Positions 163-29,579 are shown, counted from the first letter of the stretch. The stretch: 64,000 bases of DNA from an uncultured Alphaproteobacteria bacterium (GCA_934270475.1 CAKQPS010000003.1:128318-192317); one strand, 5' to 3'. The notes: generated by a model from the sequence alone, not told the origin. Translations and numbers: made by a program.

Positions 163-179
163 AAAAATAAACAAAAAAC

Positions 180-208
180 TTGACAAATAAAAAGTGGTGT
201 GTTAATCA
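180..208 (+). promoter_or_regulatory. sigma70-like promoter candidate (TTGACA-17nt-TAATCA); a second TATAAT at 240-245
   Basis: TTGACA 180-185, 17-nt spacer, TAATCA 203-208; sits just upstream of the hairpin array and the ankyrin gene. Confidence 0.35.
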
Positions 209-258
209 TACATCACTTTTTAATTTTTATATTTTATTATATAATACCTAAAGCTGAC

Positions 259-676
259 TATTAGCACAGCTCAGTTCCATTGTGAAATGCAGCTTAGTCT
301 TGGAAAGTGGATGCATTTTGGAATCTTCATATACACATATTTTTTTGGTTACTGCCAAACTCCGTTGTGAAACGCGGTTTGGTTCTGCAATAGTGCATGT
401 TTCATACTAGAAACCGGCTATGTTTCGTTGTGAAACGGGACATAGCATTTTTCAAATGCGAAGTCTACATCGTGCAGATGTATTCAATATACTCTCTTTC
501 ATAATGTGAATTAGTCAGACTCCATTGTGAAATGCAGTTTGATTTATGTAGTAGAAATGTTAAGTTTGTATCAAGCGCAGCAGTTCAACCAAAATTGAGT
601 GAATAATGAAAAGTGTTGACGTTGTGCTGTATTAGTAAATGCTTTTGCCCTGTTGTGAAACACGGCGAAAGCATTT
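259..676 (+). repeat. tandem array of 5 related hairpins with a GUGA tetraloop and covarying stems (units about 259-288, 344-373, 407-436, 523-554, 637-676)
   Basis: Conserved core C-[YRTT]-GTGA-[AAYR]-C; inner stems CATT/AATG, CGTT/AACG, CGTT/AACG, CATT/AATG, TGTT/AACA; outer stems of 8-13 bp differ in sequence but keep pairing; G.T wobbles are consistent only with + strand RNA. Confidence 0.6.
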
Positions 677-756
677 TTTTTGTGTTGTGCAAATAGTTAT
701 TATTCGTTGATTTTTTGGGTATGAAGTGGTATTTTTTATGTAAAATATAAAAACAT

Positions 757-3633
757 TTGGGGATTTTTATGAGATTTTACTATTTTATTTTACCCGCTGC
801 ATTGGCTTGTATTCAGCCTTTGTATGCCCAAGAAAAAGAAGTGCAGCTGACCAACGCCGAAGAGCTGTTTTTTACTCAAAAGAATGATTTGGAAACTGTT
901 TATAACAAAGACGGCAGTTTATTTTCCGGTGCAGTGCGCAAAAAAGATGCCGAAGGGCGGAATTTTACTTATTTTTACCGCAACGGACTGCGTCACGGCG
1001 TCGCCAGAGCAAATTATGAAGACGGCAAAATAGAATGTGAAATCACCTATCGAAAAGGTCTGAAAGACGGCGAAGAAATTTACTTTTTAGAAAATGAAAA
1101 TCCTAAATTTAAGAAAACCTATAAAGAAAATGTGCTGAACGGCGAAGAATTGCTGTTTTATGAAAACGGCAAGCCGAAAGTACAAAATCATTATTTGAAT
1201 GGTAAACTGGACGGCGAAACAACCTATTTTGATGAAAACGGCAACCGTGTTAAAATAGAGCATTTTAAAAACGGAGTCAAAAACGGGTTGGAACATATTA
1301 TTGCCGACAATGTGCTTATAGAAGAAAATAACTATGCCGACGGAGTGCTGAACGGTATAACCAAAAAATATAGCAAAGATTATCAAACGGACGAGATTGC
1401 TTATAAAGACGGCAGAAAAAACGGAATGGCAAAGCATTTTAATACTGACGGTAGCATTATTGCAATTCCCTATGAAGATGATTTGAAAAACGGTACGGGA
1501 ACAGCATATTATCCCGATAATAAAATAGCCAACACGGCAGAATACGTTAATGATGAAAAAAATGGAATGAGTGTAAAGTTTTTTAAGGACGGCAAGCGTC
1601 AGCTTGCTGAAACTTATAAAAACGGCAAATTGGAAGGCGTTAGCCGAACTTTTGATAAAAACGGCAATCTGACAAAAGTCAGCTATTATGTTGACGGTAT
1701 GGAACTAGCCTCGGTTAACTTAGAGCAAAACACCGAATTGCGCGATATGATGTCGGCGCACAGATTGGGGCAGATTAGCAAATATTCCTCTAAAAAAATT
1801 TATTGGTATCCGCTGCTGTGGCTGGCTTTGAATACCGAAGATATGGCTATTTTGCAGGCGTTGGAAAAAGATATGAAAATGTACGGCGCCGAAATTGACG
1901 ATATGGCGGTATATCAGCGCGAAAGCAAAACAAAGTTTGCCGATTACACTCGTAATTTGTATTTTGGGCTGCTGCCGCTCAGCTATGCTGTTGATTTGTC
2001 GGCTCCGGTCGAAATTTTGCAAAAATTTGCCGCACCTAAGCAGTTAAACGCGCAGAACCCGCGCGGAGGAACGGCTTTGCAAGAAGCGGTCAGACTGAAT
2101 AACTTGGAAATGGTGCGCTTTTTACTGCTGCATAAAGCCGATGTTTCCGCGGTTAAAAATTCAAATATTTTGGCGCAGTCAATTAAAGAGAACGTTCGTT
2201 TGCCTATTCTTGAAGAATTGATAAAAGCCGGCGCCGATGTCAACGCGCCTGATAATGACGGAAAGCTGCCGGTTGTGCTGGCTGTTGATAAAAATGAGGT
2301 TAATTTGCTGAAATTATTGAAAAATAACGGAGCAGATTTGAACATAGAACTGCCCGACGGAAAAAATCTGCTGTTTTATGCTTATGAGCACGAGCGCGGC
2401 ACGCAAATTGCCGATTTTTTGCTGAGTTCCGGAGCCGATGCTAACCAGCCGGATAAAAACGGCGGATTGCTGATTTTAGAAGCTTTGAAAAAATATGATG
2501 AAACTATGCTGGGTAAATTATTAGAGCATGGAGCCGATGTAAATAAAGAAAATTCAACTGGTGAAAGCGCCGTGTCATATGTAATGGAAAATAAATATGA
2601 TACTGCGACAATCCAAAAAATATTGGCTCATAATGTTAATTATTCCGGCTTGTTTGGGGCAAAAAAACAACCACTTTGGCGGTTGGCGGCAGAAAATGAT
2701 GCCTCAGTGCTGAAACAAATCTTAGATAAAAACGGCGGGGCGGATAAAGCCGATGCGGCAGGTTTTGTGCCTCTGCAGATTTTGATAAATTGGAACGGCG
2801 GCGACTCTTCGGCGCTTAAAGAAACTTTGTTGTCATATCTTACTCCTGAATGGCTTAATGCGCATCCAAAATTTTGGCAGCAGGTATTGTTGGCAAAAAA
2901 TTTGGAAGTGTGGAATGATTTGGTTAAAATCGGTTTTGATGCAAATGTCAAAGACCAAAACGGGCAAACAGCTGCTTGGATTTTGCTGAAAAATAACTAT
3001 GAACCAGTTTGGTGGAGCTCGCTTAAAGAATTAAAACCGGATTTGAATATACCGGCTGAAAACGGCAAAACCTTGCTGCAATATGCCGTAGAAAATGACA
3101 GAGGGCTGTCGCTAACAAAATATTTGCTGCAAAACGGAGCGAACATCAAAACATTGGATTCTGCTTGTTTGGCAAAGCTGCATGGTGATAGGGCTGAACT
3201 TACGGAGCTGCTGCTGGATTATGGAGCAAATACCTCTTATGTTTCAGACAGCGGAGAAACACTGCTGATGTCCGCGGTGCAAAATCTGAACGGCGTATTA
3301 TTTGACTATTTGCTGGCGAACGGAGCCGATGTTAATGCGCGCGACAATAACGGAAATACCGCCTTGTTTTATGTCGCGGAAGCCGTTTTGGACAATCCGC
3401 AGGTTTCTAAAGATGAAATGTTGGTGCAGCTTGCCGAGGTAATTGCCAAACTCAAACAGCTTGGCGCCAATATAAACGAGCAGAACGGCAACGGCGAAAC
3501 CGTGCTGGTTTATTTAGCCAAAACTCAATCTCCGGCTTATGCCGAAATTGAAAAAATATTGCTGGAGCAGGGGGCTGATGAGACAATCAAAGACCAATAC
3601 GGCAGAACCGCCGCAAATTATAGGATAAAATAA
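757..3633 (+). CDS. secreted MORN/YwqK-type repeat plus ankyrin-repeat protein (ORF opens at TTG 757; likely ATG start at 769 with a GGGGA Shine-Dalgarno)
   Basis: N-terminal signal peptide MRFYYFILPAALACIQPLYA|QE; repeated YxNGKxxxxxxYxNGKLDGxxTYFDENG (MORN_2-like) units; C-terminal half has many ankyrin repeats (GxTALxxAVxxNNLEMVxxLLxxGADVN). Confidence 0.8.
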   Translation: MGIFMRFYYFILPAALACIQPLYAQEKEVQLTNAEELFFTQKNDLETVYNKDGSLFSGAVRKKDAEGRNFTYFYRNGLRHGVARANYEDGKIECEITYRKGLKDGEEIYFLENENPKFKKTYKENVLNGEELLFYENGKPKVQNHYLNGKLDGETTYFDENGNRVKIEHFKNGVKNGLEHIIADNVLIEENNYADGVLNGITKKYSKDYQTDEIAYKDGRKNGMAKHFNTDGSIIAIPYEDDLKNGTGTAYYPDNKIANTAEYVNDEKNGMSVKFFKDGKRQLAETYKNGKLEGVSRTFDKNGNLTKVSYYVDGMELASVNLEQNTELRDMMSAHRLGQISKYSSKKIYWYPLLWLALNTEDMAILQALEKDMKMYGAEIDDMAVYQRESKTKFADYTRNLYFGLLPLSYAVDLSAPVEILQKFAAPKQLNAQNPRGGTALQEAVRLNNLEMVRFLLLHKADVSAVKNSNILAQSIKENVRLPILEELIKAGADVNAPDNDGKLPVVLAVDKNEVNLLKLLKNNGADLNIELPDGKNLLFYAYEHERGTQIADFLLSSGADANQPDKNGGLLILEALKKYDETMLGKLLEHGADVNKENSTGESAVSYVMENKYDTATIQKILAHNVNYSGLFGAKKQPLWRLAAENDASVLKQILDKNGGADKADAAGFVPLQILINWNGGDSSALKETLLSYLTPEWLNAHPKFWQQVLLAKNLEVWNDLVKIGFDANVKDQNGQTAAWILLKNNYEPVWWSSLKELKPDLNIPAENGKTLLQYAVENDRGLSLTKYLLQNGANIKTLDSACLAKLHGDRAELTELLLDYGANTSYVSDSGETLLMSAVQNLNGVLFDYLLANGADVNARDNNGNTALFYVAEAVLDNPQVSKDEMLVQLAEVIAKLKQLGANINEQNGNGETVLVYLAKTQSPAYAEIEKILLEQGADETIKDQYGRTAANYRIK

Positions 3634-14889: not shown

Positions 14890-15396
14890 ATGGAGGACAA
14901 AATGGTCGATGAAGAATATATATCAAAAGAAGAAGCTTTGAAAAAAGGCTACAGACGGCGCCGCGGTAAAGGATTATATAAACCGTCTGTATTGGAAAAA
15001 TACTATGAAAACGGGGTATTAGAGCTAAAAGGAAGCCCGTTCAGTGCGTTTGACCGCAAACAAGCCGGCGAACAGCTGGTAAAAGATTTTTATTTAGGAA
15101 ATTATAATAATTTGCAGACGGCACCGCTAATAAGAATCGGATCAGGTTTTGGTAAAAGAGAATATGCCTTAGTCTATCAAGAGCGCTATATAAAAGCAAT
15201 GCAGAGCATTCCAGAAGAGTTTTGGCACGTTGTCAGATATGTTTGTATTGAAGATAAAGAAATAAAAGCAGATAAGAATATTATGCCGCACAGTCTTTTA
15301 AGCAAACAAGTGGTGTATCATCTAAAATCCTTGCTGGTACTGGGTTTGGAAAGATTAGTAAAATATTATTTTCAAAAAAATGAAAAAAGTTCTTGA
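14890..15396 (+). CDS. phage hypothetical protein
   Basis: 168-aa ORF with a good RBS (AATGGAGGA); no recognisable family. Confidence 0.4.
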   Translation: MEDKMVDEEYISKEEALKKGYRRRRGKGLYKPSVLEKYYENGVLELKGSPFSAFDRKQAGEQLVKDFYLGNYNNLQTAPLIRIGSGFGKREYALVYQERYIKAMQSIPEEFWHVVRYVCIEDKEIKADKNIMPHSLLSKQVVYHLKSLLVLGLERLVKYYFQKNEKSS

Positions 15397-15430
15397 CATC
15401 AGGTGACCTGTGTGCTAATAAAATTACTAT
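15395..15430 (+). promoter_or_regulatory. promoter candidate with an embedded palindromic operator (CAGGTGACCTG)
   Basis: TTGACA-17nt-TAATAA; the spacer holds the perfect inverted repeat caggt-g-acctg. Confidence 0.3.
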
Positions 15431-15521
15431 GATGTAAAATTGTATTTAGAAAAAACTTACATTTTAGGGGATTAAGCTCAATATTCAGCTTAGTCTCTAT
15501 TTTTTTAGGAGAAATATAAAA

Positions 15522-15767
15522 ATGTTAAAAGCAATAGCAGACAGGCTTATTGTTAAGCCTGATAAAACTTTGCCGTCCGCTTTGATTGGCGTGGAAAATG
15601 AAAACAAGTTCACTAATCAGGGGGTGGTGCAAAGCATTGGCGGTAATGTAACTTTGGCAGCTGTCGGCGAACATATAATTTATCATCGCTTTGACGAACT
15701 GCCTTTGCCGCAGGACGATTTAATCGTTATCAGAGAAAACAGCCTTTTGGGCAAAATTTCGAAATGA
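15522..15767 (+). CDS. GroES-like (Cpn10) co-chaperonin, phage-encoded
   Basis: 81 aa; MLKAIADRLIVKP...GVVQSIG...VGEHIIY...DLIVIRENSLLGKI parallels the GroES beta-hairpin pattern; AGGAGAAAT Shine-Dalgarno. Confidence 0.5.
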   Translation: MLKAIADRLIVKPDKTLPSALIGVENENKFTNQGVVQSIGGNVTLAAVGEHIIYHRFDELPLPQDDLIVIRENSLLGKISK

Positions 15768-15832
15768 TTTAATATTTAATTATAATATTTTTTAACTTTG
15801 CAGACCGTGTAGCTTTACCGGTCTGTTTTTGT

Positions 15833-17584
15833 TTGGAGAAAACTATGGAAAAACAAAATAACAGTGAATTATACAGGGAGTGGCTTGCTAAAATCCGTTC
15901 CTCTGAAAAAAACTATGAAGATTATTATGCGCTGGTTGAGGAAATTCGTAAATATTACCGCAATGAGCGAAAACGCAATAAGCAAAGCATTTTTTGGTCA
16001 TCGGTAGAAACTTTGAAACCGTTTTTATATTTCAAACAGCCGCAACCTTTTATTATCCGCAGCAACAAAAAATCTGACGCGGTCGAAAACACTGCCTGCC
16101 GGATTTTGGAAAAAGCTTTGGAATGGGATATGAAACAATTTGACTTTGACAGCGTTGTCAAATACGCCCGCAACGATTTTTTACTTTCGGGTATGGGAAT
16201 TTTGTGGGAGCAATATCATTCCAGTTTCAAATATATCGGCAATGTCACCTTAAAAGACAAAGAGCAGGTAACCACTCAATATGTTAACCCCATGTCGTTT
16301 TTAGCCGATGTTGATAAGGTGAATGTGTGGGAAGATGTAGAATGGATTGCCCGTAAAACTTTTATGAACGTCAGCGAAATTTACAGTAATTTCGGCGAAG
16401 AGCTGGCAGATTATTTTTGGCAGCATAATTTTACCGATAAAAGTATTTCCGTCTATGAAATTTGGGATAAGAAAACCCGTAAAATTTATTATCTCAGTCC
16501 GGAATTGCCGGATACTTTTTTACAGATTAACGAAGATACTTTGCATTTGAGCGGATTTTTCCCGTGTCCTAAGCCGATTATGGCAACTCTGACCAATGAC
16601 GGAATTGTTCCGGTGCCAGATTATGTAGAAATCAAAAGCCTGCTTGACGAGCTGGACGGAGTTAACAGCCGTATGCGGCTGACTATGCAGGCGCTGAAAG
16701 TTTCCGGCTGCTATGATAATTCTTTTCCTGAATTGGCAAACATTTTGGACAAGGATATAACACTGATAGCCTTAAATGATTTTGACAAGCTTAAAGATGC
16801 CGGAGGTATCCGCGGAATTATCGACTTTGCGCCGATTGAACAATATATCAGCACCTTGCAGGTTTTGGCGGAGCGTCGCAAAATTCTGATTGATTCCATA
16901 TATGAAGTAACTGGTGTCAGTGACATTATGCGCGGCGCCTCAAATTCACAGGATACGGCAACGGCAGTGCTCAAAAAAACAAACTTCGGCACTTTGCGCA
17001 ATCAAGACCGCCAAAATGATATGCAGCGTTTTTTGAAAGATTTGCTGCGTATTAAAGCCGAGATTATCTGTGAACAATTTTCACCGGACAGACTGGCGGC
17101 TTTTGTTGCCGATGATATGGCGCAAAAGCCTGATGTGGTGGCGCAGGCTGTGAATTTGCTGAAAACTCAAAAACTCCGCGGTATGGTTATTGAGCTGGAA
17201 ACCGACGGCAGTTTTGACATTGTTAAGCAGGAAGAAAACGTTTTGCAGGTGTTGTCGCATATTCATGAAATGATAAGTCAGGCGTTTGGTGTTGTGTCGC
17301 AGCAGCCGGCGCTTTTGCCGTTATATCGTCAAATGATTGAAGCAGCGGCGGCAACTCTTTCTAACGCCCGACAGTTTGAAAATGTGCTGGAGCAGGTTTT
17401 TGATAAAATCAGCGCCGAATTGAATGCTCCCGACCCGCAGATGCAGCCGGCAGAAGACAAAATGGTGGCGCTGCAAACGCAAAAAATGCAGCAGGATTTT
17501 GCAATTAAACAAGAACAGAATCAAATCAAACGCGAAGAGCTGGATTTGAAAAAAATTACGGAATTAAACAAAATTTCTAAATAA
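15833..17584 (+). CDS. large phage structural protein (possibly portal or head-tail connector)
   Basis: 583 aa, coiled-coil C-terminus, position at the head of a structural-gene block; assignment tentative. Confidence 0.35.
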   Translation: MEKTMEKQNNSELYREWLAKIRSSEKNYEDYYALVEEIRKYYRNERKRNKQSIFWSSVETLKPFLYFKQPQPFIIRSNKKSDAVENTACRILEKALEWDMKQFDFDSVVKYARNDFLLSGMGILWEQYHSSFKYIGNVTLKDKEQVTTQYVNPMSFLADVDKVNVWEDVEWIARKTFMNVSEIYSNFGEELADYFWQHNFTDKSISVYEIWDKKTRKIYYLSPELPDTFLQINEDTLHLSGFFPCPKPIMATLTNDGIVPVPDYVEIKSLLDELDGVNSRMRLTMQALKVSGCYDNSFPELANILDKDITLIALNDFDKLKDAGGIRGIIDFAPIEQYISTLQVLAERRKILIDSIYEVTGVSDIMRGASNSQDTATAVLKKTNFGTLRNQDRQNDMQRFLKDLLRIKAEIICEQFSPDRLAAFVADDMAQKPDVVAQAVNLLKTQKLRGMVIELETDGSFDIVKQEENVLQVLSHIHEMISQAFGVVSQQPALLPLYRQMIEAAAATLSNARQFENVLEQVFDKISAELNAPDPQMQPAEDKMVALQTQKMQQDFAIKQEQNQIKREELDLKKITELNKISK

Positions 17585-17596
17585 AGGAGAATAGAA

Positions 17597-18364
17597 ATGC
17601 CATATGACAGCAACGGATTGTTTACTAGAATGCACAGCTGGGAAGATGACCGAAAAAATGAAATAGATATTGTGTCCGACCGACACGATGAAGAAGACGA
17701 TAATTTTGCCGACGGTTTGAGCGAGTGTTTACTGAAAGACGGTCGGGCGCCGATGAAAGGCGAACTGAAAATGGGCGGCTTTCAAATTAAAAATTTGGCA
17801 AAAGGCACTGCAGAAAAAGACGCGGTAAATAAAGAGCAGCTGGAAGAAACGGTAAAATTGCTTAAAGAGGCAATGAACATGTTTTTCGGCGTGGGCGACA
17901 TTAAGGCGTCGTTGCAAACTGCCAATTATGACAATTGGTTTTTATGCAACGGGCAGGAAGTCAGCCGTACGGCTTATCCCGAATTATTTGCTTTAATCGG
18001 CACAAGTTTCGGCGCCGGAGACGGTTCAACTACCTTTAATCTGCCGGATTACCGTGGTAAGTTTCTGCGCGGTTTGGGCGGCGATTCGGCGCAGGATATG
18101 CAGACAACGCAAAAAGAAGGTCTGCCGAACATTACCGGTCAATCGCAGGCGCAGGACGGTTATTTATATGGAGCTCCTCCCACCACAGGCGCTATCCGCA
18201 TGGTAAATCCGCGCACCGGCAACACTCGTTCCGGCGACGGCGGCGGAGCCTATTATTTTACATTTGATGCCAGTTTGTCAAATTCAATTTACGGTTCAAG
18301 CAGCCATGTAACGCCGATAAATCAGGCGGTTAATTATTTTATTAAAGTAAAAAAGGAGGAATAA
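17597..18364 (+). CDS. phage tail collar domain protein (short tail fibre-like)
   Basis: FLCNGQEVSRTAYPELFALIGTSFGAGDGSTTFNLPDYRGKFLRGLGG matches the phage tail collar domain consensus. Confidence 0.7.
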   Translation: MPYDSNGLFTRMHSWEDDRKNEIDIVSDRHDEEDDNFADGLSECLLKDGRAPMKGELKMGGFQIKNLAKGTAEKDAVNKEQLEETVKLLKEAMNMFFGVGDIKASLQTANYDNWFLCNGQEVSRTAYPELFALIGTSFGAGDGSTTFNLPDYRGKFLRGLGGDSAQDMQTTQKEGLPNITGQSQAQDGYLYGAPPTTGAIRMVNPRTGNTRSGDGGGAYYFTFDASLSNSIYGSSSHVTPINQAVNYFIKVKKEE

Positions 18365-18367
18365 GCG

Positions 18368-18727
18368 ATGACAGGAAGAATTTTGCCTAATGCGGATATT
18401 ATAGAAGTGCGTCAAGGCGACAGTTTTAATATAAAATTACGGTTTAAGGCAAAAAACAAGGCGCTTGATGTGTCTAAGCTGAAAGTGCTTATGCAGGTGC
18501 GTAAAACCGAAAACGATTCTCTGGTTTTTGAAAAAGAGGCAGAACCCGTGGAAGCCGCGCAGGGAATATATTTGCTGCGTTTGACGCCGGTCGAAACATC
18601 GGCTCCGGTCGGCAGCTATAAAACAGATATTCAGGTAACGTTTGCCAACGGCGAGATAAATACGATTTTTCCGCAGAGCGTGGCAAAAGTCGGGGTGTTT
18701 CGTTTAACTCCGCAAGTAACCAAGTGA
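18368..18727 (+). CDS. phage hypothetical protein (small beta-rich)
   Basis: 119-aa ORF tightly packed in the structural module. Confidence 0.35.
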   Translation: MTGRILPNADIIEVRQGDSFNIKLRFKAKNKALDVSKLKVLMQVRKTENDSLVFEKEAEPVEAAQGIYLLRLTPVETSAPVGSYKTDIQVTFANGEINTIFPQSVAKVGVFRLTPQVTK

Positions 18728-18734
18728 GGCGCTT

Positions 18735-19736
18735 ATGCAAGAAAATATGATAGCGGTTAATATTGCCGACACGCAGGCGATAGATGTGTATTGGCAAGAT
18801 GAAGTTGTTTTTGATTTAGATGTTCATCTGATGTGGGTAAGATCCGGACAGCAGGAAATCAGCAAATATGTGTCTGAAGTCTCACTGCCGAAAATAGAGG
18901 ATTTTGCTAATCAAAAAATGCAAGATTATAGAGCCGAAGCCGAAAAAGCGGCGGTTTCTGCCAAAGAGGCAATGACTGAAGCGCAAAAACAGGCTGAAAA
19001 TGCGGCAATAAATTGTGAACTGGCAGCAGGCAGCGCGGCGCAGGCGGCGGAGAGTGTAAATCAGGTGGCAGACAAAACCAAGCAGTCGCTGCAGGAAATT
19101 GCCGACTATGCCGATACGCTAAAAACAAAAATAGATGCATCGGCTGAAACTGCAAAAACATCAATTCAAAATGCGGCTGATGAATATGTAGGCGCCGCTA
19201 AAGAAAACTTGAATGATTATGTTGAGCAAACGCTTGAGCCTGAAATGCAGGTTTATATCGGCAAAGCTCAGAACCAAGCGGACACAGCGGCGGCAAGTGC
19301 GGCGGCAGCGGCGGAAAGCGCAGCAAAAGTTGCGGATAGTTTGAAGGATAAAGCTGATATTGATGCCGGCAATTTTTCGGTAGCCGGAAAAAACACAATA
19401 ACAACTTTGGGAACGCCTGATTACAATTCAGGAATAACTTTGACTTTCAGCAAAGTTTTTACCAATGCTGGCGAAAGCAAAACTATGGCAAAGTCCGGTT
19501 TATTTTGCTTTGAGTTTTTAGCTAATAATGTGATTTCCACCATCTGTTTTTATGTCAATAACCGTTTTGTCGGGAAAATCGGAAATTCACAGACTTCATT
19601 AGCTTTTTGGGACGAAATAAATTTTCCGGTTACAAAAGGCGATGTTGTGAAAGTTACGGCAGAAACCGTTGGCGGTTTTACCGCAGCCGCTGTTGAGTCG
19701 TATCTTTTTCCGTATAAAGGGAGTATGTATGAATGA
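18735..19736 (+). CDS. putative tail fibre or receptor-binding protein (Ala-rich coiled-coil stalk plus C-terminal beta domain)
   Basis: Central AAxSAxxA heptad-like Ala/Gln-rich region followed by a Gly/Thr/Asn-rich C-terminal domain. Confidence 0.45.
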   Translation: MQENMIAVNIADTQAIDVYWQDEVVFDLDVHLMWVRSGQQEISKYVSEVSLPKIEDFANQKMQDYRAEAEKAAVSAKEAMTEAQKQAENAAINCELAAGSAAQAAESVNQVADKTKQSLQEIADYADTLKTKIDASAETAKTSIQNAADEYVGAAKENLNDYVEQTLEPEMQVYIGKAQNQADTAAASAAAAAESAAKVADSLKDKADIDAGNFSVAGKNTITTLGTPDYNSGITLTFSKVFTNAGESKTMAKSGLFCFEFLANNVISTICFYVNNRFVGKIGNSQTSLAFWDEINFPVTKGDVVKVTAETVGGFTAAAVESYLFPYKGSMYE

Positions 19737-20098
19737 TTAAATATGCACAAATTATAAATGAACAAACCAAGCAATGCGAGGTCGGAATGGGCACAAATGC
19801 CGAGTTTTACCACTCTGTTGGTATGACAGAAATGGAAGTTGAGCAAGCCTATGACGGCGCTTGGTATGTTAAAGGCTATGCGCCGGAAAAGCCGGCGGAA
19901 ATTATGCAGCAGGAAATTCGTCTAGTGCGCAACGGATATTTGCAGGAAACCGACAAATATATGATTGTCGACTATCCGCTGACCGAGGAAGAAAGGCAAA
20001 AAGTCAAAGCCTATCGGGAATATCTGCGGGACTATACCTTAATCGAAAATTGGTGGCAAAACAAGCCGCAAGGCTTTGCCGATTGGAGCAAAGAATGA
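19733..20098 (+). CDS. phage hypothetical protein
   Basis: 121-aa ORF; ATGA stop/start overlap with the next gene. Confidence 0.35.
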   Translation: MIKYAQIINEQTKQCEVGMGTNAEFYHSVGMTEMEVEQAYDGAWYVKGYAPEKPAEIMQQEIRLVRNGYLQETDKYMIVDYPLTEEERQKVKAYREYLRDYTLIENWWQNKPQGFADWSKE

Positions 20099-20388
20099 TT
20101 GATGATTTAAAGACAATCGTACTGTTTGTGCTGATGGCGATTGCGTCAGCCTATATTCATTATAAAGGCTTTTTTCAAGCCACCATAGACGCTGTGCTGG
20201 CGTTTTGCATGGGATATATAATGTATTTGCTTTTAGATTATGCCGCACTTTCTGGAGCAACGAGAAGCGGCATTTCTTGTGTGGTAATTTTATTCAGCCG
20301 CGCTCTTTATGAGTGGGGCAACGAATTTATCAAAACTAAGTTATCGGCTTTGATAGCCGGAAAGGCAGAAAAAAATGACAGAGAATGA
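20050..20388 (+). CDS. putative holin (likely start ATG 20095)
   Basis: From MIDDLKTIVLFVLMAIASAYIHY: 2-3 predicted TM helices, charged C-terminus, immediately upstream of the endolysin. Confidence 0.4.
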   Translation: MVAKQAARLCRLEQRMIDDLKTIVLFVLMAIASAYIHYKGFFQATIDAVLAFCMGYIMYLLLDYAALSGATRSGISCVVILFSRALYEWGNEFIKTKLSALIAGKAEKNDRE

Positions 20389-20806
20389 TTTGCAGATTTT
20401 AGCGCGCACATTGTTCGGCGAAGCCCGCGGCGAAGGCGATGAGGGGCTGGAGGCGGTGGCGTGCGTGATTATAAATAGATTTAAAGCCAAAAAATGGTTT
20501 ACCGGCTATGAAATGCTTAACGGCAAAAAAGTTCCGAGCGTGGCGCAGACTTGTTTAAAAAAAGCGCAGTTCAGCTGCTGGAATAAAAATGACCCTAACT
20601 ATAAACTGCTGTGCCAAAAGACAATCACTGCTTACGGTTTTCAAAAATGTCTTCAGGTGGCGCAAAAAGCTCTGTCCGGTAATTTGCAGGATTTTACCAA
20701 CGGGGCGCTGTTTTATCATACAAAGCAGATAAAACCTAAATGGGCAATTGGTAAAACACCATGTTATATTGCCGGTAATCATTTGTTTTATAATGATATT
20801 AAGTAA
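20375..20806 (+). CDS. endolysin, cell-wall hydrolase SleB/Hydrolase_2 family
   Basis: LARTLFGEARGEGDEGLEAVACVIINR...AQFSCWN...ALFYH matches the SleB-type N-acetylmuramoyl-L-alanine amidase domain. Confidence 0.6.
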   Translation: MTENDLQILARTLFGEARGEGDEGLEAVACVIINRFKAKKWFTGYEMLNGKKVPSVAQTCLKKAQFSCWNKNDPNYKLLCQKTITAYGFQKCLQVAQKALSGNLQDFTNGALFYHTKQIKPKWAIGKTPCYIAGNHLFYNDIK

Positions 20807-20817
20807 GGATAATAATA

Positions 20818-21081
20818 ATGGTCAAAAAAAAATTACAAGCCTATTCTTTTGCCGAAAGTTTGGAAATGTTAAATCGTCTACAGCAAATGGCTGTTGATGA
20901 GGGAAATATCAATTTAGCTCTAAAGGCGGAAGAATTAAAATGTAAAATTGCCGCTATGCAAACCGATAAAGAAAGTTCGCAATCGGCGGAAAACTTAACA
21001 AAAATTTTGGTGGATTTTATAAATGACAAACAGAATGATAGCAAAAATACCGAAAATCTTTGCTCCGCTGATGAAACGTAA
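20818..21081 (+). CDS. phage hypothetical protein (position suggests a small terminase subunit)
   Basis: 87-aa helical protein directly upstream of, and overlapping, the large terminase. Confidence 0.25.
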   Translation: MVKKKLQAYSFAESLEMLNRLQQMAVDEGNINLALKAEELKCKIAAMQTDKESSQSAENLTKILVDFINDKQNDSKNTENLCSADET

Positions 21082-22348
21082 GTTCCGTTATAAGCTTTAT
21101 TATGGAGGGCGAGCCGGCGGAAAATCATATGCTTTTGCCGATAGTTTGCTTTTTTTGGGACGTATGAAAAAATTGCGGATAGCTTGTATGCGTGAAGTGC
21201 AAGACAGTATTAAAGATTCGGTGCATAAACTTTTGAGTGACCGCATTAACTTTTATGACTTAACTGATTATAAAATCAGCGAAACAAAGATTGTAAATCA
21301 GCTCAGCGGTACAACTTTTATATTTAAGGGTTTAAGAGAGCAAGATTCCGGCAACATAAAATCACTTGAGGGAATTGATATTGTCTGGCTGGAAGAAGCG
21401 CAAAAAATCAGCAAAAAAAGCTGGGAGATTTTGGACCCGACGATTCGTAAATCCGGTTCGGAAATTTGGATTTCTATGAACAGGGAAGAAGAAAACGACC
21501 CGGTTTGGCTGGCTGTCGGAGCAAATCCCGATGAGCGGACTTTGGTGGTTAAAGTAAACTATACCGATAATCCGTTTTGTCCGGAAGAAATGCGTTATTT
21601 GGCGCAAAAGTGCCAAAAAGAGAGTCCGGAAGATTATGAACATATTTGGCTTGGAGCGCCGGTTGCGGTGGGTAGTCATAAGCTGATTGCGCCTAAATTG
21701 GTGCGTCAGGCGTTTGAAACTAAGCTGGAAAATCCGTCTTCTCCGCTGATTATCGGGCTGGATGTGGCGCGTTTCGGCGATGATAAAAGCGTGTTTTGCT
21801 TTCGGCGCGGACGGGTGTGTTTGTTTTTTGAAAGCTATGCCCGTTTGGATAATGTGGAAGTGGCAAATCGAGCCACTTTTTTTATCCGCCAATATAAACC
21901 GGCGCGGGTGTTTGTTGATGCCGGCGGCGTGGGCGGCGGTGTGGTGGATATTTTGAACGACCGCGGTTTTAAGCGAGTTGTGCGGGCAGTAATGTTTGGA
22001 GCAAAGGCGCTGGCTGACGACCGCTATCACAACCGCCGCGCTGAGATGTGGGATGAGCTGCGGATATGGCTGAGCGGCGAGCAAAAAGTGGAACTGCCGA
22101 ATGATGAAAATTTGGCAAATGAGCTTTGCGCCGTTAACAAAAAATATGACAGCCGCGGACGTTTGCAGTTGGAAGAAAAAGAAGAAATTAAAAAGCGGTT
22201 GGGCAAGTCGCCGGATATGGCGGATGCTTTGGCGCTGACTTTTGCCGAGCCGGTTTTTGAGAGGTCAGACGAAGAGTGCGGACGTCTGCCGGGCGACAGC
22301 ATAGAAAGTATGTTTCGCGCCAATAAATCCACCGATGATAAATGGTAA
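21023..22348 (+). CDS. phage terminase large subunit
   Basis: Walker A YYGGRAGGKSYAF, Walker B-like DIVWLEEAQ, C-terminal nuclease-like acidic motifs (VFVDAGGVGGGVVD); 441 aa. Confidence 0.8.
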   Translation: MTNRMIAKIPKIFAPLMKRKFRYKLYYGGRAGGKSYAFADSLLFLGRMKKLRIACMREVQDSIKDSVHKLLSDRINFYDLTDYKISETKIVNQLSGTTFIFKGLREQDSGNIKSLEGIDIVWLEEAQKISKKSWEILDPTIRKSGSEIWISMNREEENDPVWLAVGANPDERTLVVKVNYTDNPFCPEEMRYLAQKCQKESPEDYEHIWLGAPVAVGSHKLIAPKLVRQAFETKLENPSSPLIIGLDVARFGDDKSVFCFRRGRVCLFFESYARLDNVEVANRATFFIRQYKPARVFVDAGGVGGGVVDILNDRGFKRVVRAVMFGAKALADDRYHNRRAEMWDELRIWLSGEQKVELPNDENLANELCAVNKKYDSRGRLQLEEKEEIKKRLGKSPDMADALALTFAEPVFERSDEECGRLPGDSIESMFRANKSTDDKW

Positions 22349-22560
22349 TTTTTTTAAGAGAAAGGATAAAATAAAATGAGTTACAAATCTAGAATAATGC
22401 GTGAAAACGAGGCTTACGGCTGGCTGCCGGAAGATGAGGCTTATGGCAGAGTTTCTAATGTTCCGACACAGCCGGAACCGGAAGACGAAAACATCTACAG
22501 CGACAACGAACTTGCTCCGGAAAGAAGCGAGGAAGAAATATAATTTGAAAGGATATAAAA

Positions 22561-22689
22561 ATGAGTATGTATAAAATAAATGAAAAAACTGGAATAGATG
22601 AATTTGGAATAGATCACTCTAATTTTTCTTTAAGAGATGAACTAGAATATAATATGATGAGAGCCAAACAATCTATGCCAAAACAATAA
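22561..22689 (+). CDS. small phage ORF (43 aa) paralogous to the N-terminus of the 29580 ORF
   Basis: MSMYKINEKTGIDEFGIDHSNFSLRDELEYNMMRAKQ versus MSLYDIDEKTQIDEYGVCHKDFSLRDELEYNAMRQN; below the length cut-off of the ORF track. Confidence 0.3.
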   Translation: MSMYKINEKTGIDEFGIDHSNFSLRDELEYNMMRAKQSMPKQ

Positions 22690-22725
22690 AGTGTTGTTAG
22701 ACAAGCAGTTGGGGCAATAAAAGAT

Positions 22726-23046
22726 ATGAATCGTAATTATTGGGATATGAAAAGAGATAATACCATTGGAAATGATGATTATTTTCATTGCAAAGCTAAT
22801 TATGAAGCTGCAGATAGAGGTGATTTAGGCAGATCAATAGCCCAGTGGTTAGGGGATAAAAAAGAAGATTTTGATTATTATAAAAATCAGCTTAGAGGAT
22901 TATCCGCTTTAGAAGCATCTTTAGATAGAATTCACGATAGAAATGTAAATAAAATAGGTAGACAACGAGCTCAAAGCGGTTTATATTCAAACTCACGAGA
23001 TGCCTGTGAATCTTTTAGAGTTAAAGGTATAAACGACGACTATTAA
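22726..23046 (+). CDS. serum amyloid A (SAA)-domain protein
   Basis: YWDMKRDNTIGNDDYFHCKANYEAADRGDLG aligns to SAA [31 protein letters not shown]; C-terminal ...FRVKGINDDY* parallels SAA ...FRPAGLPEKY*. Confidence 0.6.
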   Translation: MNRNYWDMKRDNTIGNDDYFHCKANYEAADRGDLGRSIAQWLGDKKEDFDYYKNQLRGLSALEASLDRIHDRNVNKIGRQRAQSGLYSNSRDACESFRVKGINDDY

Positions 23047-23064
23047 AATTAAGGAATAAAACAT

Positions 23065-23289
23065 ATGAAACTGGTATTTTATTTTGCAGCAGTATTTATC
23101 ATTTTGGCGGTTATTGGTTTTGCCGGATATTTGTTTTTTGATAAACAAGCCTATTGCTTGGATATTGGAAAAATCTATGATCCGGTGCAAAAAATCTGCC
23201 GTGATGACTGTTTGAGTTGGAACGACCAAACCGGCTGCGTGCCGATAACAGATGAAAACCGGCAGAAAAAAGCCGCCGGAAAACTATAA
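23065..23289 (+). CDS. small membrane-anchored or secreted Cys-containing protein
   Basis: N-terminal hydrophobic helix MKLVFYFAAVFIILAVIGFAGYLFF, 4 Cys in the soluble part. Confidence 0.35.
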   Translation: MKLVFYFAAVFIILAVIGFAGYLFFDKQAYCLDIGKIYDPVQKICRDDCLSWNDQTGCVPITDENRQKKAAGKL

Positions 23290-23373
23290 AAAAATAATTA
23301 TTGGCTTTATTGAGCAAAACGCTTTGTTGATATAAAAACAAGGCGTTTTTTTATACCCGAAATTTGGAGAAAT

Positions 23374-23604
23374 ATGATGACTTTCATCAGCAGACAATTC
23401 GCGGAAGAGGTGCTTCTTCCGGACGGATCTGTCGCGTCTTCGGTCGCGGACGTTGACAAGTATTTACACGCCACGGGTTTAGCCTTGGCGGGCGACTATT
23501 CACCCGAATATTATCAAAATATTCGCAATCAACAAGAAAGAGAACGGCAGCAGTCTTTGTTTGCCGATTTTCTTTATAACTACAAAAGGATGATATGGAA
23601 ATGA
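23374..23604 (+). CDS. phage hypothetical protein
   Basis: 76-aa ORF overlapping the start of the next gene. Confidence 0.25.
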   Translation: MMTFISRQFAEEVLLPDGSVASSVADVDKYLHATGLALAGDYSPEYYQNIRNQQERERQQSLFADFLYNYKRMIWK

Positions 23605-24473
23605 ATGATTTAAGAAAGGAAATTGAACGACAATTCAAAGCGTTCGGTTTATCTGAACCAGACGAAAAAGCCACAGGAGAGGATAGTTCTGCTGTCTCAA
23701 ATAATGAAGAAGATAGCGGGTTTATTGCAGCTCCTGCTGACTTTGAACCGGAATATGCGGCAGCGTTTAGCGAACTTTCGCCGAAATGGCAAAAGTATTT
23801 AAGCAAGCGTGAAGAAAAATTGAAAGCCGAACGTCAGGAGCTGTCTGCCAAAATAGGACTTTTAGACAGTCTGAAAAATTTGGACGGCGAATTTCAAAAA
23901 CGTAAAACCGAAAACAACATACACAGCTTGCGCGAATGGCTTGAAGGTTTGGCATATATTGACGAACAAATGCACAGCCGCCCTGTGGAAACCTTAAACG
24001 CCATCGCTCAGGTGTTTAAGGTCAAGGCGCAGTTTTCGGAAACTCCGCAAACCGAAATTTCTGATCGAATTTTAAAAAGGCTTAGCGATCTCGATTTGAG
24101 TTTTCACAGCCTGAGAGACTATTTGCAGCAAAGCGAGCAAAGAAGTTTTTACAGTCAAATACAAGCGTTCGGTTCACAAAAAGATGAATCCGGACATTTA
24201 CTGCACCCGTATTTTGACGCTGTTTTTAAACAAATGCAGGCTTTGTTGCAAAACGGACTGGCATCAAGCATTGAAGACGCCTACAAGCAGGCGGTTTGGC
24301 TCAATGCCGATGTCCGTAAAGAGTTGATTGCCAAGCAAATCGACTCTGACGCCGCTGAAGCGCAAAAAGCGCAGAAAGCGGCATTTTCCCCAAAGGGAAA
24401 AGCAAAAGCACCGGAAAGACCTCTGACCTTGCGGGAAGAGATTGAAAAAAATATGGCTGCTTTTTTGGATTAA
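23595..24473 (+). CDS. putative scaffolding protein
   Basis: Acidic, helix-rich 292-aa protein immediately upstream of the capsid-like gene; basic Lys-rich C-terminal tail. Confidence 0.35.
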   Translation: MEMNDLRKEIERQFKAFGLSEPDEKATGEDSSAVSNNEEDSGFIAAPADFEPEYAAAFSELSPKWQKYLSKREEKLKAERQELSAKIGLLDSLKNLDGEFQKRKTENNIHSLREWLEGLAYIDEQMHSRPVETLNAIAQVFKVKAQFSETPQTEISDRILKRLSDLDLSFHSLRDYLQQSEQRSFYSQIQAFGSQKDESGHLLHPYFDAVFKQMQALLQNGLASSIEDAYKQAVWLNADVRKELIAKQIDSDAAEAQKAQKAAFSPKGKAKAPERPLTLREEIEKNMAAFLD

Positions 24474-24497
24474 CTTAAAATTTTAAAAGGATAGAAA

Positions 24498-25463
24498 ATG
24501 ACAAATAAAAATTACAATGAAGTGTTTACCGTAACTTTGAACAATCGTTCAAAAGAAATGGCTGATAATATTTCTAAAAACAACGCGCTTTTAACCCGTC
24601 TGAAAGACAAAGGCAAAATGCGTCCGCTGACCGGTGGTGCCAAAATTTTGGAAGAACTGGAATACGGCGAGGGCGATATGGTGTGGTATTCCGGCTATGA
24701 TACCATTAACTATACTCCAAAGCAATTGTTTACAGCAGCGGAATATGCACTTAAATTGTGCGCTGTGCCGGTGGCTATTTCTGGTGAAGAATTGCTGATG
24801 AACAGCGGACCGGAACAAGTTATGGATTTGTTTGAAAAGCGTATTTCTAACGCCGAAAAAACTTTGAAAAATCAAATGTCTGCCGCTTTGTTCAGCGACG
24901 GCACCGGTTCAGCAGGCAAAGAAATCGGCGGCTTGGCTTTGCTGGTCGCAGACGATCCGACTTCCGGCACGGTCGGCGGTATTGACCGTTCGGCGGCTGG
25001 AAATGAATTTTGGCGCAACCAAAGCGTAAGCGCTGATATTGATTCTTCCAATATCCGTCAGATGATGAACAGCTTATATCACAAATGCTGCCGCAACGCC
25101 GATAAACCGGATTTAATTGTTTGCGATGATGCTTTGTATACGTTGTTTGATGAATCTTTGTCGGCTTTGCAGCGTTTTTCTGACCCTAAAATGGCGGATG
25201 CTGGTTTCACCAGTCTTAAATTTAAGGGTGCAGATGTGATTTTTGACGGCGGTCAAGGCGGCTATTGTCCGGAAAAACACATGTACTTTTTGAACACAAA
25301 CTACATTTATCTGCGCACTCATAAAGACCGCAATATGAAAATTATCGGCGGCGACAGATTGGCGATAAATCAGGATGCGTTATACCGTATCATTGGCTGG
25401 GCAGGCAATATGACTATGTCAAATGCGGCTGTTCAAGGCGTGTTGATTAACACTAAAGAATAA
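24498..25463 (+). CDS. putative major capsid protein
   Basis: 321 aa; position after the scaffold-like gene; segments resemble T7-like capsid patterns (DKPDLIVCDDALYTLF); strong RBS AAAGGATAG; tentative. Confidence 0.4.
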   Translation: MTNKNYNEVFTVTLNNRSKEMADNISKNNALLTRLKDKGKMRPLTGGAKILEELEYGEGDMVWYSGYDTINYTPKQLFTAAEYALKLCAVPVAISGEELLMNSGPEQVMDLFEKRISNAEKTLKNQMSAALFSDGTGSAGKEIGGLALLVADDPTSGTVGGIDRSAAGNEFWRNQSVSADIDSSNIRQMMNSLYHKCCRNADKPDLIVCDDALYTLFDESLSALQRFSDPKMADAGFTSLKFKGADVIFDGGQGGYCPEKHMYFLNTNYIYLRTHKDRNMKIIGGDRLAINQDALYRIIGWAGNMTMSNAAVQGVLINTKE

Positions 25464-25547
25464 TTGGTAAAAATTGAAAGGGAGTGAACTAAAATCACTC
25501 CTTTTCAATATGTTATAAAATCAAGATAAAGTAAAGGAATAAAAACT

Positions 25548-26132
25548 ATGGATATGGATTTTGCCTTGTTTCAACAAGTAATCGGCACAAAAGAAACAGA
25601 AAAAAACGTGGCGGCAAGATTTTATGATAAAGCGGTTAAAACTAACGAGGTTGCAGACAACGGTCTGCCGGTTTTTAAAAATGTTACTTATATAGAAATC
25701 CGTCTGAAAGATAACAATACCGAAGTGTTTGACCAGCCGGCGACCGCAGATAAAATCCGGCGCTTTCCGCAGGAATATGCCTTGTATAAGCTTTCTAAAA
25801 AGCAAACGGAAAACGGCACGCCGCTGGAGCAATTTGCATTTTTGACCGCGGCAGAAATTGCTACCTGCAAAAGCCGCGGCGTGTTTACGGTGGAAACTTT
25901 AGCGGGTTTGGATTTTGATAAGGTGCAAAGCCTTGGTTTGCAGGACGAACATGTTTTAGCGCAGATGTTTTTAGAAAAATCAGAAAATAACAAGATGTTA
26001 GATGATTTTGCCAAAAAGGAGCTTGAATATGAAAGAGAAATTGAAACTTTGCGCGAACAGCTGGCGGCTGTGCAAAGAGCTCTTAGTGAAGAGCGTAAAA
26101 AACATTCCGGCGCCAAAGCGGGAGAAAAATAA
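25548..26132 (+). CDS. phage hypothetical protein
   Basis: 194 aa with a C-terminal coiled coil; RBS AAAGGAATAA. Confidence 0.35.
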   Translation: MDMDFALFQQVIGTKETEKNVAARFYDKAVKTNEVADNGLPVFKNVTYIEIRLKDNNTEVFDQPATADKIRRFPQEYALYKLSKKQTENGTPLEQFAFLTAAEIATCKSRGVFTVETLAGLDFDKVQSLGLQDEHVLAQMFLEKSENNKMLDDFAKKELEYEREIETLREQLAAVQRALSEERKKHSGAKAGEK

Positions 26133-26854
26133 TGAAGACAATTTTAGAAATATGCCGCGAGGTTGCGGATTTAGCGGCGACAAAACGCCCAAATAATTTG
26201 TTTGACGCCAACAGCCAGCAGGAAAGTATTTTTTTAAGCGTGGCAAAATCGGCTCTCGACAGCCTGCTGCGCTACGGCGATTGGCAGGAACTGACCAAAG
26301 AAGGCTGTTTGCGCACGGTTGAAGGGCGCACTCAATACCCAATTTCCGAATTTTTGCCGGATTTTTTCTGCCTTTTGAATAACACGATTTTTATTAAAGA
26401 CAGTAAAGAGCGCATAATCGGCGCCATTACGCCGGAGCAGTGGATGAGGGAAAAATATTTTTCCAGTCCAAGCAATGAATTGAAATTCAAAATTCAAAAC
26501 GGGCGCTTTGTTTTTTTAACTCCGCCGGCAGGCGGTTTGCGGATTGTGTTTCAATATCGTTCCAACGGCGTGGTTTGGGATTTTGACACTTTTGAAGAAA
26601 AAAGCTCGCTCACCGCCAACACTGATGTTCCGGTTTTTGACGAATATTTGGTTAAGCTGAATATTTTGTGGCGATGGCTTAAACGCAGCGGGCTGGATTA
26701 TGGCGAAGAATATGATGAATTTCAGCGTGAATTAAAAAAGCGCTTTGGTTCCGAGCACGCCGCCGCCAACATAAATTTGGCAAAGTCGGATAATGGTTTG
26801 AGCGAAACAGGAGTAATAATCAATGAAATTAAAATCAGCAGCGCGGGGCACTAA
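26132..26854 (+). CDS. phage hypothetical protein
   Basis: 240-aa ORF, ATGA overlap with the upstream gene. Confidence 0.35.
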   Translation: MKTILEICREVADLAATKRPNNLFDANSQQESIFLSVAKSALDSLLRYGDWQELTKEGCLRTVEGRTQYPISEFLPDFFCLLNNTIFIKDSKERIIGAITPEQWMREKYFSSPSNELKFKIQNGRFVFLTPPAGGLRIVFQYRSNGVVWDFDTFEEKSSLTANTDVPVFDEYLVKLNILWRWLKRSGLDYGEEYDEFQRELKKRFGSEHAAANINLAKSDNGLSETGVIINEIKISSAGH

Positions 26855-28382: not shown

Positions 28383-28804
28383 GCGATGAATATGAAATTC
28401 TGCCAGATGAAAACAATATCATAGCCAAGTGGGTCTGTGATGGTTTGGGTGAAAATGCAGATTGGCTCGACACGCATACGACTTATGGCTTTGCCCAAGG
28501 CGGAAAAATGCTCGGCGGGCTGATTTTTCACAGTTACCGCCCCAATATAGAGGTTTGGTGGACAGTTTACACCGTTGACAAGCGTTGGTGTAACCGCCGT
28601 ATGCTTAGAGCTATGTTTGATTTGGCGTTTAACAAGCTAAAATGCCGGCGTATTTCGCTGCTGGTGAGCAAAAGCAACGCCGCCAGCTTAAATTTTGTAA
28701 AAAAACTCGGTTTTCAGCAAGAAGGAATGTTCAGGGCATATCGTGAAAACGGCGATGACTGCTGCATTTTCGGCATGCTGAAAAACGAATGTAAATGGAT
28801 ATAA
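28379..28804 (+). CDS. GNAT family N-acetyltransferase
   Basis: RRMLRAMFDLAFNKLKCRRISLLVSKSNAASLNFVKKLGFQQEG matches GNAT motifs A/B (acetyl-CoA binding). Confidence 0.55.
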   Translation: MSDEYEILPDENNIIAKWVCDGLGENADWLDTHTTYGFAQGGKMLGGLIFHSYRPNIEVWWTVYTVDKRWCNRRMLRAMFDLAFNKLKCRRISLLVSKSNAASLNFVKKLGFQQEGMFRAYRENGDDCCIFGMLKNECKWI

Positions 28805-28820
28805 AGAAAGGAAAAAAGAA

Positions 28821-29543: not shown

Positions 29544-29579
29544 AATGTAATGTAACTTAAAAAATCTAGGAGAATTAAA

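Follow-up and report, generated by a model that had tools for sequence, protein, structure and literature searches.

The window, by which we mean the whole 64-kb stretch of DNA analysed here, begins inside csp, a gene for a cold-shock domain (CSD) protein that ends at position 162. Downstream, starting at position 769, lies the gene for a 954-aa secreted MORN/ankyrin-repeat protein. The 600-nt spacer between the two carries five hairpins on the + strand (Table 1) and contains no ORF longer than 42 aa. Small peptides starting at the GUG of the hairpin loops were rejected as products of the spacer: they span 8-42 codons, lack a Shine-Dalgarno sequence and are unconserved. No transposase or integrase gene is adjacent to the array.

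The host is an uncultured gut alphaproteobacterium; the thymidylate synthase encoded in the window is identical to MCI5634026.1, a protein from an alphaproteobacterial MAG. The window sequence is also present in a contig of the Hadza gut metagenome (L001), where csp is preceded by a gene for a helical 126-aa protein with no Pfam domain on record. By eye, we noticed a tRNA-like sequence upstream of that gene, on the minus strand of L001 (473-548). Farther along the window, positions ~14900-30000 hold a prophage-like block with Collar/YadA-stalk tail-fibre domains, Phage_tail_APC and a cell-wall hydrolase, and the annotation of L001 adds a terminase large subunit. A megablast search of this region against a phage collection gave no match.

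Table 1. Positions of the hairpin units and of the elements around them in the window, and of related elements on other contigs. R1, bit score against a covariance model of the hairpin module; ΔG, folding energy; z, folding energy relative to shuffled sequences.
Feature	Sequence	Position	Strand	R1 (bits)	ΔG (kcal/mol)	z	Remarks
Putative array promoter	window	179-209	+				conserved element; CTTGAC (179-184), N17, TTAATC (202-207)
csp intrinsic terminator	window	188-222	+				from a terminator scan; 15-bp stem, then T-run; kept in all relatives
Unit 1	window	269-298	+	37.8	-6.9	-0.75	GTGA loop 282-285; apex CC-AUUGUGAAAU-GC; inner stem CAUU/AAUG; C·C mismatch; outer stem short, interrupted
Unit 2	window	354-383	+	44.4	-14.2	-3.9	GTGA loop 367-370; inner stem CGUU/AACG; C·C mismatch; 8-bp outer stem including a U·G pair
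Unit 3	window	417-446	+	44.2	-18.3	-6.0	GTGA loop 430-433; inner stem CGUU/AACG; continuous 13-bp stem; terminator-like, then T5 (448-452)
Small extra hairpin	window	466-482	+				UACAUC-GUGCA-GAUGUA; between units 3 and 4; in the MFE and centroid folds
Unit 4	window	510-547	+	43.6	-11.5	-4.6	GTGA loop 527-530; inner stem CAUU/AAUG; C·C mismatch; 9-bp outer stem
Unit 5	window	637-676	+	47.1	-21.1	-7.6	GTGA loop 655-658; inner stem UGUU/AACA; C·C mismatch; 13-bp outer stem; then T8 (674-681)
MORN/ankyrin gene promoter	window	706-734	+				TTGATT-N17-TATTTT; just upstream of the start
Extra plain terminator	L122	1560-1600
Extra plain terminator	L123	2880-2915
Extra plain terminator	L125	1505-1535
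Extra plain terminator	L202	~3340-3385
Tandem mini-genes	L132	2870-3115
Tandem mini-genes	L187	6745-6990	minus
Tandem mini-genes	L182	100-240	minus
Tandem mini-genes	L155	570-700	minus
Tandem mini-genes	L188	5590-5740

Covariation and folding strand of the hairpins

A search of the 64-kb window for CYRTTGTGAAAYRS with at most one mismatch returned five matches, all on the + strand (at 277, 362, 425, 522 and 650); shuffles gave an expectation of 0.69 ± 0.94 matches, and none of 100 reached five. All five units share the core YR-UU-GUGA-AA-YR on this strand. The constant part extends to an 18-nt tip, 5′-C-U-(N)-Y-R-U-U-[GUGA]-A-A-Y-R-(N)-R-G-3′, which consists of a GNRA-type tetraloop on a 4-bp inner stem, then a 1x1 non-Watson-Crick pair and, below it, a pair that is mostly U·G. 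The outer stems vary fully between units and still pair, while the tip is invariant. Over 29 nt the units are 66-83% identical, and they are alike only over the 12-18 nt of the tip. The 9-nt tails of units 1, 2 and 4 contain only two or three T and no U-tract; units 3 and 5 have the make-up of an intrinsic terminator, a stem-loop followed directly by a U-tract, and unit 3 was also picked up by the terminator scan. The stem of unit 3 is continuous because a U·G pair replaces the mismatch.

The original prediction had described a tandem array of five covarying GUGA hairpins. All five units are real, but the positions given for units 1-4 were about 10 nt off: units 1-3 (259-288, 344-373 and 407-436) had been placed too far to the left and ended just past the loop, and unit 4 (523-554) too far to the right. 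Unit 5 was exact. The compensatory changes reported for the inner stems and the C·C mismatch reported for four of the five units (1, 2, 4 and 5) are both present as described. Outer stems of 8-13 bp were likewise confirmed for units 2-5, but unit 1, the weakest of the array, forms a far weaker hairpin than described and folds no better than its shuffles.

We quantified the covariation on an ungapped alignment of 19 units from four species, anchored on the GUGA loop (A1). In the 14-pair helix, 88.3% of cells are standard pairs, against 69.6% after column shuffling and 38-48% after the 3′ partners have been displaced by 1-3 columns. Changes on both sides occur in 10 of the 14 pairs, in a total of 68 cells (24 in shuffles). 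The alignment has a covariation score of 0.717, compared with 0.318 for shuffled alignments, and none of 500 shuffles reaches its score. Both U-A pairs that abut the loop are invariant, and the next two pairs outward covary, the first as C-G or U-A and the second as G-C, A-U or G·U. Columns 14/27 are non-standard in 17 of the 19 units (seven U·C, six C·C, two C·A, one A·C and one A·A); columns 13/28 are U·G in 12 units and U-A in five, and columns 12-13 and 28-29 are kept as C-U/R-G. The 19 units are partly non-independent, as they include orthologs with a shared history; the stems are wholly different among the units of one array, however, so the covariation signal is not merely inheritance.

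Direct comparison of orthologs gives the same picture. Unit 4 reads CAUU/AAUG in the window and CGUU/AACG in the closest relative (L122), a compensatory double change, and unit 3 of the window shows the reverse double change relative to L122. The hairpin structure is kept by compensating mutations in related species and is hence real, and the compensatory changes between orthologs argue for selection. Thus, the claim of covariation stands, with a strong signal both within the array and between orthologous arrays.

The 19 units contain 35 G·U pairs and only three A·C pairs, which identifies the + strand as the folding strand and supports the left-to-right direction that the original prediction had read from its wobble pairs. 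On the minus strand, R1 has a single weak match (20 bits, at unit 5). Folding of the whole region 240-700 gives z = -4.45 for the + strand and z = -3.45 for the minus strand.

Distribution and boundaries of the array

Within the sequence searched, the hairpin module is confined to one locus. With filters off, the best R1 match on the + strand of the window outside the five units scores only 16 bits, in keeping with the original statement that the module is not seen elsewhere in the window. Dispersed copies were found neither in the window nor in ~190 kb of related alphaproteobacterial contigs, where the matches of R1 are restricted to orthologous arrays; the many identical copies at gene ends that were to tell against the original prediction are therefore absent from both. 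Likewise, ~250 kb of related sequence contains no single module in a 5′ UTR. Positions 100-800 match no Rfam 15 family, whether at the gathering thresholds or with the limit relaxed to E ≤ 10. The array had no BLASTN match in phage or plasmid collections, and the literature yielded nothing relevant on either the motif or terminator hairpins with a GUGA loop. Together with the covariation and the strand asymmetry, the lack of dispersed copies and of an Rfam match supports the original reading as a structured RNA family; its assertion that the array is neither CRISPR nor iterons nor plain REP elements also survived testing.

Several known tandem-hairpin systems were compared with the array. A CRISPR array was ruled out, since only the tip is shared and the units are irregularly spaced (85, 63, 97 and 128 nt). 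A type III toxin-antitoxin locus was ruled out as well: ToxI-like repeats are near-identical units of ~36 nt, which these are not, and there is no toxN-like gene among the neighbours, which encode the CSD and MORN/ankyrin proteins. The guanidine-II (mini-ykkC) riboswitch resembles the array in its tandem small hairpins with covarying stems and an invariant tetraloop with its closing pairs. However, it has two hairpins with ACGR loops in the 5′ UTR of transporter genes, whereas here there are three to six with GUGA loops; these loops, the position of the array upstream of the next gene's promoter and the lack of an Rfam match exclude it. Cuckoo and CcsR RNAs are alphaproteobacterial RNAs with tandem repeated hairpins and a conserved loop motif, encoded downstream of a small protein gene. 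The array shares its host class, its repeated tandem hairpins and its place behind a small protein gene with them, but their loops carry CCUCCUCCC anti-Shine-Dalgarno seeds, whereas the GNRA loop here, closed and 4 nt long, does not suit pairing by a seed.

Orthologs of the MORN/ankyrin protein are encoded on other gut-metagenome contigs at 80, 61, 60 and 52% identity, and most of these contigs keep the order of 126-aa protein, CSD protein, spacer and MORN/ankyrin protein. Arrays of 3-6 units occupy the csp-to-MORN/ankyrin spacer in another four lineages of this clade of gut Alphaproteobacteria: six units in L122 (80% identity), four in L123, L124 and L139 (61%), four in L125 and L175 (60%), and three in L202 and L207 (~60%). 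In all five lineages with an array, it lies 3′ of csp. The lineage with the most divergent ortholog (L126, 52%) has the same gene order, a 191-nt spacer and no array; csp, the 126-aa protein and the MORN/ankyrin protein thus remain together without it. MORN/ankyrin homologs in other genomic contexts (L127-L129) also lack the array, and 20 loci with csp homologs (84-85% identity) have gene-poor spacers of ~0.5 kb downstream with no R1 match. These 20 loci indicate that the array is tied to csp by position alone, and in one clade only; with L126, they led us to reject a functional coupling of the array to csp. In more distantly related alphaproteobacterial lineages, the 0.5-kb gap behind csp holds another conserved G+C-rich segment (L208 2880-3060, L211 2880-3050), which could be another non-coding RNA, unrelated to the GUGA module.

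In a five-species alignment (A2), the spacers between units are poorly conserved across lineages; the small extra hairpin between units 3 and 4 is kept in L122 with a different loop. The first unit has the lowest or nearly the lowest R1 score in L123 (39.8 bits) and L125 (39.7 bits), whereas in L122 (46.5 bits) it is neither. About 13 of 22 units end in T-rich tails. A T-run stands behind the last unit in four of the five lineages (the window, L122, L123 and L125; not L202); T-runs behind internal units are not kept between orthologs. Furthermore, L122, L123, L125 and L202 each carry one more plain terminator (AAACTTCCCGC...GCCGGAAGTTTTTTT), located past the last unit and ahead of the MORN/ankyrin promoter; the window has lost this terminator.

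The csp terminator is the left boundary of the array. Overlapping it, with its -10 element inside the terminator loop, is the putative array promoter, which a promoter scan reads as TTGACA-18-AATCAT (10/12). In A2, CTTGAC/TTGACAA and G(C/T)TA are invariant in this flank, and the consensus is CTTGAC-N17-CTAnAn. The element reads CTTGAC-N17-CTATAT in L125, which equals the rhizobial sigma-70 consensus, and CTTGAC-N17-CTAAAT in L123; the -10 element of the window is the poorest among the five species. On the other side, the predicted MORN/ankyrin promoter would form the right boundary. Its CGTTGATTTTT...TA-T-TTT is invariant in A2 and is present even in the array-less L126, which argues that the array is not the leader of that gene. 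As homologs of the gene elsewhere also do without the array, we rejected a 5′ UTR of the MORN/ankyrin gene as an explanation.

Judging by these sequence elements, a separate promoter for the downstream gene and CTTGAC-N17 across the csp terminator, the array appears to be an independent RNA of ~460 nt (215-681, + strand). Unit 5 and its T8 are likely to be the 3′ terminator of this putative RNA. The interior of the arrays shows no enrichment of sigma-70-like promoters, and separate promoters for the units were rejected on this ground. Taken with the unconserved internal T-runs, this would favour a single transcript, on which some internal units might act as leaky stops.

GUGA hairpins with similar tops on Bacteroidetes-like and phage contigs

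One metagenome scan and one viral scan returned further contigs with tandem, similarly topped hairpins (L132, L187, L182/L155 and L188); these score 18-37 bits against R1, compared with 36-50 bits for the alphaproteobacterial units, and part of their similarity was imposed by the search pattern. On these contigs, two or three mini-genes stand in tandem, each consisting of a TAnnTTTG box, ~50 nt that include UUUCAUA, a hairpin with the top C-Y-N-YRUUGUGAAAYR-N-G-G, and a T-run. The TAnnTTTG box corresponds to the Bacteroidetes -7 promoter element. In L132, the mini-genes are located after phage lysis-type genes. Like the alphaproteobacterial units, they are tandem hairpins with a similar top and often a pyrimidine-pyrimidine mismatch at the same place; unlike them, each has its own promoter box, UUUCAUA and U-tract. 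Because the pattern imposed part of the resemblance, we do not claim a single family. The L132-type mini-genes may be an undescribed phage-borne sRNA family.

The L132 units also score 35.1 bits against BTnc231 (RF04180), far from its gathering score of 80.4 bits; the window has no match to RF04180 at E ≤ 10. BTnc231 is a Northern-validated Bacteroides sRNA (PMC7366714). It likewise has two GUGA-loop hairpins, but their loops are closed by C-G.

A looser pattern, three TTGTGAAA 50-80 nt apart, mostly found CRISPR-like or tandem repeats and chance matches among the matches listed, of which only L005 resembled the motif. In this Paraprevotella MAG, three successive terminator-like hairpins with UUUGUGAAAA tips follow a gene end (750-925; R1 27 bits), and GUGA-tipped terminators may be common in Bacteroidetes. 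On a Pseudomonas contig (L082 7160-7400), hairpins of nearly the same sequence (cacaggtttctgttGTGAaaytggaatctgtg) follow one another at distances of 63 and 126 nt; they look like a tandem repeat rather than the covarying module.

Possible functions of the array

The array is a structured RNA locus that lacks annotation, is restricted to one lineage and shows strong covariation. Bacteria build decoys for global RNA-binding regulators from hairpin tips that are repeated and closely conserved. We tentatively propose that the array may be a multivalent decoy or scaffold RNA for a putative hairpin-binding factor, built like CsrB and RsmZ (probability about 0.4). The RNA would start near 215, from the promoter-like CTTGAC-N17 element overlapping the csp terminator, and end at the T8 behind unit 5. 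Each tip would be the binding site for one partner that is specific for sequence and shape, most likely an RNA-binding protein. The array would then titrate or assemble several copies of this partner, as CsrB and RsmZ do for CsrA and RsmA with a different motif. The argument for a decoy rests on the constant 18-nt tip with its kept irregularities, the free-running stems and the copy number of 3-6. In particular, the conserved mismatch (17 of 19 units) and the U·G pair (12 of 19) are not needed by a bare terminator and are expected of a recognition site, and variable copy number with a constant tip is also found in known sponge RNAs. Against a decoy count the absence, from the ~250 kb of related sequence searched, of the lone modules in 5′ UTRs expected under a regulon model, the T-rich tails, which make many units resemble plain terminators, and the poor -10 element of the window. 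The flanking genes stay together in L126 and csp homologs occur without the array, so nothing ties the array to a particular protein.

The likeness to CsrB, RsmZ and RsmY is one of architecture. All are stand-alone intergenic RNAs of a few hundred nucleotides with a variable number of hairpins, one invariant tip motif and a terminator at the end, and in all of them the copy number differs between species. However, the motif of the known RNAs is GGA in the loop, whereas the array has UU-GUGA-AA with a mismatch below, and its host is alphaproteobacterial. The conserved tip contains no GGA motif, all five loops being GUGA, and this, with the lack of an Rfam match, excludes membership in the CsrB/RsmZ family. 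The array is therefore of a kind already known; its motif and putative partner are new.

The five units could instead act in cis, as a stack of successive intrinsic terminators or attenuators that insulates a strongly expressed csp from the next gene, an explanation that we regard as possible but doubtful. Tandem intrinsic terminators are likewise stable stem-loops with GNRA tetraloops, the array sits between two co-directional genes, always behind csp in five lineages, and T-runs follow units 3 and 5 and many units of the relatives, which carry a further plain terminator past the last unit. The tip might then aid fast nucleation of the hairpin, or it might be the target of an antitermination factor that permits conditional read-through, for example a cold-shock-domain protein holding the tip single-stranded; CspA-family proteins of E. 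coli reportedly are transcription antiterminators, according to work by Bae et al. in 2000. Against this, csp already has a strong, conserved terminator of its own upstream of the array, and csp homologs of neighbouring lineages lack such a stack. Three of the five units in the window (1, 2 and 4) have no U-tract, and the downstream gene, which has its own promoter, manages without the array in L126. The invariant 8-nt tip, the mismatch and the U·G pair, none of which termination needs, are also left unexplained. If the array is merely a terminator stack, it is a minor curiosity.

Less probable, in our view, is a cluster of short RNAs arising from separate starts or from processing of a precursor, in which the conserved hairpin would be a terminator and a handle for stability or a chaperone, and the variable spacers would be base-pairing seeds. 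The similar tops of tandem units in L132, L187, L182 and L188, the weak resemblance of L132 to BTnc231 (35 bits) and the T-rich tails of many alphaproteobacterial units would suit such a cluster. However, the alphaproteobacterial arrays show no enrichment of sigma-70-like promoters, spacers so poorly conserved between lineages are unlike seed regions, the window array has no BTnc231 match at all, and the Bacteroidetes resemblance was partly forced by the search pattern. We consider it very improbable that the hairpins dock with one another, the GUGA loop of one in the C-U/R-G step of another, to form a protein-free particle or multimer. According to Michel, Westhof and Costa, GUGA loops of group I and II introns favour 5′-CU:AG-3′ as their helical receptor, and columns 12-13/28-29 are indeed kept as C-U/R-G, but the receptor step has the U-A pair in only five of 19 units and U·G in 12.

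Most improbable of all are hairpins that act as DNA, whether REP/BIME, attC-like or transposase-recognised single-strand structures, or a neutral remnant of duplications. The units are imperfect palindromes of 30-40 nt clustered in an intergenic region, as REP/BIME are, and an excess of G·T over A·C is also compatible with single-stranded DNA. However, REP/BIME elements are dispersed, conserved in their stems and often alternating, whereas the units occupy one locus in one orientation with variable stems; five copies at a single locus on the + strand, with none in related contigs outside the orthologous locus, rule them out. Integron attC sites were ruled out because R′′/R′ boxes (RYYYAAC...GTTRRRY) are expected at the base, where the stems here are unrelated; it is the tip that is conserved, and no cassette ORFs lie between the units. 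The lack of an adjacent transposase or integrase, and the compensatory changes between orthologs, which suggest selection, also speak against a role as DNA.

The decoy reading can be extended. The 18-nt top (GUGA tetraloop, UU/AA closing pairs, covarying YR pairs, pyrimidine-pyrimidine mismatch and U·G step) might be the recognition element of a new RNA-binding regulator of gut bacteria, with the alphaproteobacterial array as its sponge and the Bacteroidetes-phage units as mobile versions that use or hijack the same code; we think this unlikely, slightly more so than the cluster of short RNAs. If it is true, there would be a new sponge-regulator pair in a lineage without cultured members, linked to phage small RNAs across phyla. 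To our knowledge, gut Alphaproteobacteria of this clade are uncultured and their post-transcriptional control is wholly undescribed. If the array is a decoy, the hairpin could be used as bait for the regulator and the covariance model to look for mRNA targets. The array is a clean new candidate family, absent from Rfam and with covariation that is strong for so few lineages.

Some features concern individual units. Just upstream of unit 4, UUUCAUAAUG (497-506) can pair over 10 bp with 523-532 (CAUUGUGAAA, the 5′ half and loop of the hairpin). This pairing is kept in L122 (~1213-1222 and 1239-1248) and could form an alternative structure at unit 4 only. More generally, an upstream UUUCAUA(AUG) reaches 9-10 bp with the tip in units 3 and 4 of the window and in unit 4 of L122, but for all units together such pairing is no better than with shuffled upstream sequence, and we rejected an alternative structure or pseudoknot of this kind. 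Units 1 and 4 (282-290 and 527-535) read GUGAAAUGC, which matches letter for letter a stretch of the conserved 690 loop of 16S rRNA (GCGGUGAAAUGCG); the identity is probably a coincidence, since the other units read GUGAAACGC or GUGAAACAC.
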